Below are positions 46,560 through 64,000 of a DNA stretch of 64,000 nucleotides, piece after piece. A model generated the notes under the pieces. The model saw only the letters and a program-made list of their open reading frames with translations. It did no database searches and was not told where the DNA came from. Every line of letters begins with the position of its first letter. Position 1 is the first letter of the stretch. This stretch comes from a virus (taxonomy: Duplodnaviria; Caudoviricetes): the IMG/VR virus record IMGVR_UViG_2974623298_000001, positions 12,262 to 76,261 of that record. One strand, written 5' to 3'. Made by a program: the position numbers and the translations under genes.

Positions 46560-46578
46560 ACGCGGTACTAGTTGTCAA
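46550..46578 (-). promoter_or_regulatory. SigA-like promoter TTGACA-N17-TACCAT
   Basis: Perfect -35; the spacer contains the recurrent ACTAGTACC motif. Confidence 0.7.
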
Positions 46579-62218: not shown

Positions 62219-63144
62219 ATCTTTTCCCCTAATGTGTAGGAATTGTGCCACGCTAGCTATTCGTAATTCTTTTACGAATTACTAGCGCGAAACAATTCGG
62301 TTAATGGATCTAATCGAATTGTATCGCTAATTTGTCTGATTCATTAGTTCGCATTTAATGGTACTAGCTATATTCCCATTAACCTAACAATTCAGACACA
62401 ACATAATGTAGGCCGTTCACGGATACCTAGGACATGTCAACTAGTAGTGCCGCTATCCCCTACGCTACGTTTCATTTTTCGCACCATATCCGCGTGATCG
62501 CTACCGACATCTAACATCGGCGATCATCCAATTTTTCGGACGCCCGTGTACGATTGTCTAGTCCACCGCTAACCCGTAGGTGCGCTAGTGGTACTAGTTG
62601 TTAGTGGCGCTAGCGGTGGCGCGTACCGGGACCGGTCGACCGCGCGTCGGCCCGACCGGGACGACCACCGAACTAACTAACGACTAACAACTAGAACACT
62701 ACGCCCGGTGGTACTAGTTGTCTATAATCAAATCGTTATGATCGGAAGTCGGAAAAATCTTGACATGTAGTACTAGTAGGGTGTATCGCGCACATGTCGC
62801 GGTAGGGATAGGTAGGGGCACTTGGTACAAGGGTTGGTACAATCGCGATCGGCCGGCCGAATAGTTGCATAGCTCAACTAACGAGTTGTGATAGTGAATA
62901 CTGAATGCGCTATAGCAAAGATGTACCATAGTGAATGTTCTTTGTGATACTGGATTTAATTGGTGATAGTGAACTTAATTTGAGATAGTGCATTTAATTC
63001 AGTGTAGTAAAGAATGTTTGTGATAGTGAATGTTCTTTACTACAGCGGATTATATGTGTGATAGTGAACGTTCTTTGTAATACTGAATTAAATGTAGGAT
63101 CATGAATATCTTTGTGATACTGGATTAGATGTAGGGTAGCAAAG

Positions 63145-63163
63145 ATAGGGTAGGCTTACCTAT
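63145..63163. promoter_or_regulatory. IdeR/DtxR-like iron box (16/19)
   Basis: ATAGGGTAGGCTTACCTAT vs TWAGGTWAGSCTWACCTWA. Confidence 0.55.
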
Positions 63164-63254
63164 GTGTAGTGAGCATATGTACCAGTCGTTGTAGTGGTAC
63201 ATGGCTTGGTACAATGAATAGTTGTATCGTGCAACTACTATGACTCGTTGTATA

Positions 63255-63273
63255 GTAGGTAAGCCTAACCTAA
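63255..63273. promoter_or_regulatory. IdeR/DtxR-like iron box (18/19)
   Basis: GTAGGTAAGCCTAACCTAA vs TWAGGTWAGSCTWACCTWA. Confidence 0.75.
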
Positions 63274-63920
63274 GTAGACATGTGTCTAGACATCCGTCCA
63301 GGCGGGTGTATGTACCTACCGTTGTAGCAGGTACAATGGTAGGTACAAACGAGAATTGACGCGCATCTAACCATATGGCAATGGTGGAAGTCAAATCGTG
63401 ACTCCCAACATGTGGGATTAGAACGTGTTCATCGGATGTTACCGAACGAGTGGTGTAACGGGTCAATGCCGTGGTCAACGTGGTACTAGCGTGTTACCCG
63501 ATCGGTCTGTATCGAACGCTAGCGGCCGAAAATTGGGTTAGTGGTACTAGGACGACCAAACGGGGGTCTAGCGCGTCTACGGGCCATCTAGGGGCGAGAG
63601 CAAACATTCTCGATTTTGTCAAATCGGGCCCAAAACCCTAGACCTAGGGTTGAGTGTTGACAACGCGGAAAAAGTGTGCATCGCGCCAAAACCGATAGTT
63701 GCATCAAGCAACTAAATATCTTGAATCGTGCAACGTGGACTTTGCGATAGTGAATGTTGTGATAGTGAAACTGAGATGTGTTATCTCAAAGCATAGCTAT
63801 GCGTCGTAAGTGCATCTTTATTCAGACGACGCCCGTGTTCAGTTGAGCATTGCAACGACTTTTAGTTGCGTGTTGCATCTGATAACGTTGAAGGTCGCAA
63901 CTAATTTTCGCCGACCAGAG

Positions 63921-63939
63921 CAAGGTAAGCCTAACCTAA
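63921..63939. promoter_or_regulatory. IdeR/DtxR-like iron box (18/19)
   Basis: CAAGGTAAGCCTAACCTAA vs TWAGGTWAGSCTWACCTWA. Confidence 0.75.
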
Positions 63940-64000
63940 CTTTGCTAGCGTGGATTTGGGATGCAACTTTGGAAAGGGTGTGTGCTAGCGTGAAGCTCTC

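Follow-up and report, generated by a model that had tools for sequence, protein, structure and literature searches.

A gene-free mosaic of operator-like words at the right end of a lytic Gordonia phage genome: a candidate terminal control region

The right end of the genome of a lytic Gordonia siphovirus, a Montyvirus-like member of cluster CS, is a stretch of about 1.8 kb (positions 62219-64000 of the window) that is free of genes and filled with short repeated words resembling operators. The window is the whole stretch of DNA that was analysed, 64,000 nucleotides (nt) corresponding to bases 12262-76261 of a 76,261-bp virus record; positions are those of the window unless they are called genome positions. 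A first-pass annotation, made from the letters of the sequence, had described this end as a non-coding mosaic of operator-like motifs, and had suggested a landing pad or sponge for regulators, a replication origin or a genome-end control region. We consider here what the stretch contains, what its relatives have kept of it, and what it might do for the phage.

The gene-free end and its terminal repeat

The first 191 bases of the virus record recur at its end, positions 63810-64000 of the window being identical to genome positions 1-191. Hence the last 191 bp of the window are a direct terminal repeat (DTR), and the genome physically ends, on the right, at position 64000, which gives substance to the suggestion of a genome-end control region. 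DTRs of 191-192 bp are reported for Gordonia phages of cluster CS, which are described as growing lytically and carrying neither integrase nor repressor (PMC4982279, PMC5559632). An end word, AGCTCTC|TGCT, is conserved across three genera.

The closest relatives are the Gordonia phages BenoitCattle (95.5% identity), BigShaq and Linetti, followed by the Monty/Hotorobo group. There are 65 matching GenBank records, from the genera Montyvirus and Woesvirus, and in none of them is a gene annotated under this stretch. A search of IMG/VR for further relatives with the protein of the last gene returned one locus only, that of Hotorobo. The published accounts of cluster CS that we found (genome announcements and the 2017 Gordonia survey, including PMC4982279 and PMC5559632) do not discuss the region. 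About 3% of each genome, the largest gene-free block, has stayed unannotated despite 65 related cluster CS genomes in the collection searched.

According to the annotation of a relative, genes 1-8, an archaeo-eukaryotic primase (AEP) and a helicase among them, run leftward at the left end of the genome; the structural and lysis genes run rightward; and about 70 mostly small genes run leftward from the right end. The last of these (Table 1) opens the leftward early block. Its product matches PHROG 10038 (function unknown), has no Pfam match and occurs only in the same 65 phages. At the left end, 642 gene-free bases follow the DTR. In a concatemer the gene-free junction comes to 1591 + 191 + 642 bases, or 2.4 kb, and the stretch considered here is its right-hand two-thirds. 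The junction is bounded on one side by the terminator of the primase/helicase operon and on the other by the opening gene of the leftward small-gene block. G+C content, 58.6% in the genome, is 45% in the region and 31.7% in an array of 19-nt repeats (iterons) within it.

That this end is non-coding was borne out. It holds 15 stop-free stretches of at least 40 codons, and none is intact in all relatives. The best of them lies on the minus strand (63497-63637) and runs for 47 codons; 16 of 17 relatives keep it open. Its start is not conserved, PokyPuppy has a frameshift in it, and its conservation is one of DNA words. ARAGORN found no transfer RNA or transfer-messenger RNA in the region. Rfam, searched with permissive filters, gave no family at gathering score; its sole match (E = 0.62), of a microRNA model to the inverted repeat in the 5' leader of the last gene, is a chance one. 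RNAalifold, run on both strands of the conserved core, returned short local palindromic hairpins and no consensus fold. To this lack of a known RNA family or covarying fold there is one exception, the small hairpin of that 5' leader (62240-62298). Its inner stem carries compensatory changes in three Montyvirus versions (GTAATTC/GAATTAC, GCAATTC/GAATTGC and CGATTC/GAATCG), and its role might be that of an RNA element or of a palindromic operator.

The repeat content of the region is far above what 300 dinucleotide-preserving shuffles of it would give. There are 40 8-mers that occur at least three times, against 1.5 +/- 1.4 in the shuffles; 512 bases lie under repeated 10-mers (62 +/- 35 in the shuffles); and palindromes with 6-nt arms number 17 (4.7 +/- 2.8). 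CTAG is found 22 times where the shuffles give 5.7 +/- 2.3, so that 22 of the genome's 94 copies fall in 2.3% of its length. Most of the conserved words (GGTACTAG, GCTAGC, TCTAGAC, CCCTAG) have CTAG within them. A large segmental duplication as the source of these repeats was considered and rejected, as BLAST of the junction against itself gave short motif matches only.

Alignment with the right ends of 19 relatives shows that the words are also kept in order. In both Montyvirus and Woesvirus the succession is leader hairpin, GTGGTACTAG sites, (ACTAAC)n run, TAGACA block, TTGACA-GTACTAG-GTATC block and repeat array, and then GGTACAA pairs with palindromes, IdeR-like box, GTAGACATGTGTCTAGACATCCGTCCAG, further palindromes, the nested palindrome AACCCTAG..CTAGGGTT and the terminal repeat. 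Every motif named in the first-pass annotation lies where it had been placed, including the GGTACAA pair followed by a TAGTTG-N7-CAACTA palindrome, found twice and the second time with an IdeR box behind it (Table 1). Where it had counted at least five motif families there are at least ten. Its picture of a dense mosaic of operator-like sites holds against the shuffles and in the relatives, and the conservation across homologous regions on which that picture hung was found, for words and order alike, in the two genera. What it had lacked are the DTR, the gene-free continuation at the left end, three inward promoter candidates and the circumstance that most of the words are probably private to the phage.

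A genome-wide search with five word families found that four keep to the terminal regions. Terminal gene-free DNA holds all iteron, palindrome and IdeR-like words, save for a few mismatched matches elsewhere in the genome. GGTACAA is enriched there (5 of 10 genome copies), and words like GTGGTACTAG have a few internal sites as well.

Table 1. Coordinates of the features of the gene-free right end (window positions)
Feature	Position	Strand	Remarks
Last (rightmost) gene, 134 amino acids	61814-62218	-	bounds the gene-free region; homologue of BenoitCattle gp109
Hairpin/inverted repeat in 5' leader of last gene	62240-62298	-	27-nt arms, 81% complementary
GTGGTACTAG-family site a (ATGGTACTAG)	62358-62367	+	TGGTACTAG invariant in 15 Montyvirus phages
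GTGGTACTAG site b	62588-62597	+	invariant in 15 phages
P_L2, leftward promoter candidate	62560-62531	-	TAGACA-18-AAAAAT, from the consensus scan
(ACTAAC)n heptamer-like run	62670-62697	+	tandem repeats finder gives period 7; kept in both genera
P_L1, best-supported leftward promoter candidate	62724-62696	-	TAGACA-17-TAGTGT
GTGGTACTAG site c	62708-62717	+	inside P_L1 spacer
TTGACA-N4-GTACTAG-N6-GTATC block (site d)	62760-62789	+	both genera; no canonical -10
Module 1	62824-62880	+	GGTACAA-N5-GGTACAA pair 62824-62842, then TAGTTG-N7-CAACTA palindrome 62862-62880
19-nt iteron array	62885-63127	+	core cTTTGTGATAsTGaAT; at least nine recognisable copies
IdeR/DtxR-like iron box 1	63145-63163	.	15/19 to consensus TTAGGTTAGGCTAACCTAA; position conserved in Montyvirus
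Module 2	63196-63237	+	GGTACAT/GGTACAA pair 63196-63214, then palindrome 63219-63237, found in all Montyvirus phages
IdeR/DtxR-like iron box 2	63255-63273	.	16-17/19 to TTAGGTTAGGCTAACCTAA; in every phage of both genera
Conserved block GTAGACATGTGTCTAGACATCCGTCCAG	63274-63301	.	overlapping TAGACA/TGTCTA palindromes; near-invariant in 13 phages of two genera
Third GGTACAA pair	63330-63348	+	
Conserved palindromes TCCCAACATGTGGGA and GTTACCGA-N7-GTGTAACG	63393-63460	.	local hairpins only predicted
GTGGTACTAG sites e and f	63480-63489, 63541-63550	+	
Nested palindrome (TTGTCAA .. AACCCTAG-N-CTAGGGTT .. TTGACAA)	63614-63663	-	contains P_L0
P_L0, leftward promoter candidate	63663-63635	-	TTGTCA-17-TAGGGT
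Third palindrome and two iterons	63696-63773	+	palindrome 63696-63714, iterons 63741-63773; directly before DTR
DTR	63810-64000	.	holds iron box 3 and three or four TGCAAC-type half-palindromes
IdeR/DtxR-like iron box 3	63921-63939	.	inside DTR, so also at left end

Promoter candidates and host operator words

Promoters were sought as a TTGACA-like hexamer followed, after 16-19 nt, by TANNNT. Every Montyvirus and Woesvirus sequence has at least one candidate on the minus strand of the gene-free region, and on the plus strand no candidate recurs outside a few related phages. The candidate with the best support is P_L1. In 20 of 21 phages from three genera, the distant GTE7 among them, TANNNT stands 17-18 nt after TAGACA or TGGACA (two scans together, which gave no row for Sticker17). 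Spacer and -10 exist in ten versions, with four different -10 hexamers (TAGTGT, TAACGT, TAGATT and TAGGTT), and a signal that is kept despite such turnover of sequence is good evidence of function. An internal consensus promoter of the same genome, at 46578, shares the layout of P_L1, having TTGACA and, in its spacer, ACTAGTACC.

The other two candidates are less secure. At the position homologous to P_L2 there is AGGACA-18-AAAAAT in PokyPuppy, RoyalG and Diabla and, with the same spacing, AGGACA-18-TAGGTT in Woesvirus; the match fails in some members of Montyvirus. P_L0, as nTGTCA-17-TAGGGT, is present in 20 of 20 Montyvirus and Woesvirus sequences and absent from GTE7. Since its -10 belongs to a palindrome, its conservation has another possible cause and counts for less. 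The mirror version of P_L0 on the plus strand is without TANNNT. Rightward promoters were considered as well, and rejected: in no phage does a TANNNT follow the conserved TTGACA block at 62760, or that at 63655, at the distance a promoter requires.

Hexamers and spacing are thus kept across relatives, as one would expect of promoters of the sigma-A type. Since P_L0, P_L1 and P_L2 all face the leftward block of small genes, the region would be at least an early-promoter region. The same scan finds sigma-A-type promoters on the minus strand before other leftward genes (56278, 46578, 42298 and 36166). A near-consensus promoter of this type (TTGACA, 17-18 nt, TANNNT) also precedes the primase operon, at genome position 5601 on the minus strand.

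Among these promoter candidates lie words of a host regulator. The consensus for IdeR/DtxR is TTAGGTTAGGCTAACCTAA, a 19-bp inverted repeat (PMC4598388). Three 19-mers of the region differ from it at 2-4 positions. Nowhere else in the 76 kb is there a site with up to five mismatches (0.05 would be expected), and the three occupy four places in the genome if box 3 is counted at both copies of the DTR. The core of box 2, TAGGTAAGsCTwACCT, is near-invariant in Montyvirus and Woesvirus, and in several phages, not in all, TANNNT abuts this box on the minus strand. In Montyvirus genomes the boxes number three or four, their positions are fixed, and one is in the DTR. Woesvirus has the central box only, and GTE7 has none.

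Does the host use such a word? A 17-nt core of the IdeR word, TAGGTWAGSCTWACCTA, was counted with at most one mismatch in 201 genomes of Mycobacteriales, the order that contains Gordonia (one of them, G008, is unpublished, and the result does not depend on it). It is found in 90 of the 201, usually 1-4 times in each; its reversed control is found in 3 of the 201. In a species-wide scan the core occurs almost only in Actinobacteria. In terms of sequence, then, these are genuine iron boxes, indistinguishable from a host IdeR operator.

Consensus words of regulators other than IdeR were sought as well. Of those for Zur, Rex, CRP/GlxR, DosR, NrdR, KstR, HAIR, CIRCE, CsoR-like regulators, AmtR, McbR, parS and the DnaA box, none is enriched in the region. 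One word, TAGAACGTGTTCAT (63419-63432), agrees at 10 of 12 positions with the KstR word TAGAACnnGTTCTA; it is present in only part of Montyvirus and could be due to chance. On the other side of the DTR, in the gene-free left end (genome 338-353), there is a LexA/SOS box, ACGAACATATGTTCGA, with one mismatch to the actinobacterial consensus TCGAAC-N4-GTTCGA. BenoitCattle, Hotorobo, RoyalG, Woes and GTE7, which represent three genera, have kept it, and it covers the -10 of a rightward, inward promoter-like site, TTGATA-16-TATGTT.

Repeat arrays and words probably private to the phage

The iteron array is the most variable part of the region. In Montyvirus it comprises 3-10 units of 19 nt, whose orientation flips in PokyPuppy, RoyalG and Diabla. 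In Woesvirus the same place has no 19-nt iterons; it is taken by 7-9 units, mostly 35 nt apart, each with a TAGTTG-N7-CAACTA palindrome. An iteron-like word, GTGAATGTT, is kept just before the DTR even there. Mixed orientation, variable copy number and a core that is kept in diverged units suggest sites at which proteins bind double-stranded DNA, rather than RNA, genes or neutral satellites.

The succession of GGTACAA pair and palindrome is a conserved composite module, found in Woesvirus too, although in Hotorobo-type phages the GGTACAA pair of module 1 is inverted. The TAGTTG-N7-CAACTA palindrome has three degenerate copies in the DTR. Another word of the region, alongside the iteron, the GGTACAA pair, the TAGTTGCA-N3-TGCAACTA palindrome and GTGGTACTAG, is TAGACATGTGTCTA.

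The GTGGTACTAG words are polar. In the right region they stand on the plus strand (6 copies in Montyvirus, 3-4 in Woesvirus, 2 in GTE7) and in the left region on the minus strand (2-3 copies each, with one exception in Woes), so that on both sides of the DTR they point to the nearer genome end. This polarity fits mirror-image end recognition and fits, equally, an element that is read in the direction of inward transcription. A Chi-like site protecting DNA ends was also considered. The orientation would suit it, since in three genera the word is written 5' to 3' on the strand that ends 3' at the near terminus, which is the geometry of Chi facing a nuclease that enters at an end. However, Chi must be common in the host genome and this word is avoided in genomes of the host order, and so the suggestion fails.

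The avoidance can be put in numbers: GGTGGTACTAG has 4 matches in 31 genomes of the host order, against 2-24 per genome for its reversed control. As a host operator the TAGTTGCA-N3-TGCAACTA palindrome was rejected too, since it occurs in 10 of 61 host-order genomes and its control in 9 of 61. Because the host order avoids or does not use the words tested other than that of IdeR, they are probably read by proteins that the phage encodes. These CTAG-rich families, probably words for phage proteins, are the 19-nt iterons, GGTACAA pairs, TAGTTGCA-N3-TGCAACTA palindromes, polar GTGGTACTAG and further palindromes. Candidates for such binders were sought with Pfam and PHROGs among the annotated DNA-binding, early and left-end proteins of the phage, and only two HTH_17 proteins and the AEP primase were found.

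The gene-free left end (genome 192-833) exists in two versions, one with nine TAGGAATGTTT repeats (this phage and Hotorobo) and one with a stretch rich in ACTATAAT (BenoitCattle, RoyalG and Woes). As the version at the left does not follow relatedness at the right, the two sides are mosaic.

Possible functions

Several suggestions can be made as to what such a region is for. We read it as a terminal control region, and the function with the best support is early transcription, with inward promoters that would be interleaved with operators for IdeR and for phage proteins. We believe this about as much as we doubt it. The analysis shows the layout of the region, its conservation, the promoter signatures and the agreement with the IdeR word; the binding of proteins, the timing and the choice of the genome end that enters first are what we infer. 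When this end enters the cell, host RNA polymerase would start at P_L0, P_L1 or P_L2 and read into the early genes. Phage proteins and iron-loaded IdeR, sitting on the promoters and in the intervals between them, would decide how much of this transcription passes. This complex of DNA and proteins may in addition label the junction in concatemers for replication or packaging.

Several points weigh against this reading. The hexamers are weak (TAGACA, AAAAAT) in two of the three promoters, the -10 of P_L0 is part of a palindrome, and transcription from P_L0 would need a leader of 1.4 kb before it reached the first gene. About 1.8 kb and ten families of sites are more than one promoter region needs, and other functions probably coexist with it. 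Iteron, palindrome and IdeR-like words that occur nowhere else in the genome would suit an origin or a packaging site equally well. From the size of the region, the number of its families, their absence elsewhere in the genome and the mirror polarity one may suspect that it does more than this at the concatemer junction.

A more speculative extension can be offered, which we regard as doubtful. This lytic actinophage may have wired two sensors of its host around the DTR, IdeR on the right side and in the DTR itself and LexA at the left promoter. By reading the iron and DNA-damage state of the cell, or by titrating IdeR, it would time early transcription, replication or packaging, and polar GTGGTACTAG would mark both ends for a phage protein. 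Operator words of global host regulators in a lytic phage suggest, at any rate, an infection tuned to the iron status of the host.

One of the further roles could be replication. The AT-rich iteron array and the TAGGAATGTTT repeats, facing each other across the DTR, would bind a phage initiator and open the DNA, beside the primase/helicase operon in the concatemer map. We consider this unlikely, though the array has a good deal in its favour: its repeats are tandem, direct and 31.7% G+C in a genome of 58.6%; its nine or more units exceed the three tandem direct repeats of 17-22 nt by which an iteron origin may be recognised; and variation in copy number is common in iteron arrays. Moreover, on the left, at 170-460 nt beyond the DTR and directly downstream of that operon, there is a second family of repeats that has GAATGTT in common with the first. 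However, an iteron period of 21-23 nt places initiators on one face of the helix, and the period here is 19 nt. Nor are the units spaced by about two helical turns or uniform in orientation, as they flip within an array in PokyPuppy, RoyalG and Diabla, and no initiator-like protein is found among the neighbouring proteins or the DNA-binding candidates. Woesvirus and GTE7 do without these iterons at the same place, and BenoitCattle, RoyalG and Woes have other sequence in place of the left-end repeats. There is no cluster of DnaA boxes in the region, and GC skew gives no signal, its extremes being in the tape-measure gene and at the strand switch. The replication origin of the first-pass annotation has thus gained no positive evidence. 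Recognition for packaging is a related suggestion, and in our judgement quite unlikely. Here a terminase or an end-binding protein would read the mirror-image, phage-private words around the DTR, and so find and cut both repeat boundaries in concatemers. The opposite strands of GTGGTACTAG in the right and left regions would agree with this; GGTGGTACTAG, avoided in the host order, would make a specific address; and the DTR is filled with TGCAAC half-sites and ends in a word that three genera share. Yet the distance of the sites from the right end ranges over 460-1640 nt, a scatter much wider than that of known terminase sites; some GTGGTACTAG copies are in promoter spacers (that of the internal promoter at 46578 included), a small terminase subunit was not identified, and the polarity matches inward transcription at both ends just as well.

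Another potential role is that of a decoy. Replicated boxes and arrays would soak up IdeR or a phage regulator and might, for example, switch on host iron uptake for the iron-sulfur proteins of the phage. Each Montyvirus genome has three or four strong IdeR boxes with none beside a cargo gene, the arrays tolerate changes in copy number, and the phage encodes WhiB and Cas4-type proteins, families that carry iron-sulfur clusters. But Woesvirus has a single box and GTE7 none, and the boxes are fixed in position relative to other conserved blocks, an order for which a pure sponge has no need; we think a decoy very unlikely. Of the landing pad or sponge that had been proposed for host or phage regulators, the landing pad can now point to an IdeR operator word, whereas the sponge has found no positive evidence. 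Finally, the stretch might be a gene for a non-coding RNA or a small protein, or a neutral expansion of repeats at the concatemer junction, and this we find scarcely credible. It is true that the 47-codon stretch is open in nearly all relatives, and that the first units of the Woesvirus array are near-identical, which suggests recent duplication. Against an RNA gene stand the Rfam result and the want of a fold beyond short palindromes; against a protein gene stand the missing start, the frameshift and conservation as DNA words; and against neutral repeats stand the common core that diverged units retain and the syntax of sites maintained across genera. A control region organised around early transcription remains the reading that we prefer.

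We know other examples of ends of this kind. In phage T5 an untranslated region in the terminal repeat, with the injection stop signal, many repeats, palindromes and eight boxes for host DnaA, has been proposed to hold the entering DNA (bioRxiv 10.1101/866236). Like it, the region described here is an untranslated end of a siphovirus with terminal repeats, is conserved in relatives, contains boxes for host proteins and has a function that is inferred. However, the T5 region lies within a repeat of about 10 kb and has DnaA boxes; the Gordonia region lies mostly outside its 191-bp repeat, its boxes are of the IdeR type and, on the left, of the LexA type, and DnaA boxes are not enriched in it; nor are these phages known to inject their DNA in two steps. 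At the left end of the podovirus T7, promoters A1-A3 lie beside a terminal repeat of 160 bp, in a region of less than 1 kb, and for T7 it is known in which order the DNA enters. A short direct terminal repeat, an adjoining gene-free stretch and several tandem promoters for host polymerase, all directed inward into early genes, are the points of likeness, but T7 is without iteron arrays and boxes for host regulators. The Gordonia region thus differs from both in its IdeR and LexA host boxes, its genus-specific arrays and its polar private word.

Single elements have parallels as well. The tox promoter of corynephages carries an operator for DtxR. Here too there is a 19-bp inverted repeat on phage DNA, a word typical of the host order with 15-17 of 19 positions in agreement with TTAGGTTAGGCTAACCTAA; the differences are that a strictly lytic phage carries it three or four times, once in the DTR and never before a cargo gene, and that binding is predicted. 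Iteron-type origins (lambda ori, P1, plasmid iterons) have in common with our array tandem direct repeats of about 19 nt in AT-rich DNA near replication genes, but here the 19-nt period goes with mixed orientation, an array motif that is replaced between genera and no known initiator. Terminases recognise repeated boxes flanking the cut, as in cosB of lambda, pacL/pacR of SPP1 and pac of P1. Short words repeated on both sides of the cutting sites, in mirror image, are found here also; they extend over more than 2 kb, some are in promoters, and their recognition is putative.

Whatever its function is, the region supplies candidates for early promoters, operators and end-recognition signals in these phages. 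Arrays that differ by genus within a site order that is kept constitute a natural experiment, by which DNA words may be paired with phage proteins. Words that the host lacks would be good private addresses for such proteins.

More distant relatives and the neighbouring operon allow a few further observations. GTE7 (L149:4253-5436) has neither IdeR box nor iterons, and its gene-free junction of 1.18 kb has P_L1, mirror-image GTGGTACTAG and the SOS box. In Demosthenes (L148:2293-3074) the gene-free end is 782 nt long and 63% G+C; it lacks an IdeR box and contains three palindromic words with a CCCCTAGGG core. In the operon at the left end, the 755-amino-acid protein that is annotated as a DNA helicase in relatives (genome 1800-4067, minus strand) has no Pfam match at E <= 0.01, and the primase of 312 amino acids (genome 4583-5521, minus strand) matches the archaeo-eukaryotic primase domain PF22548.

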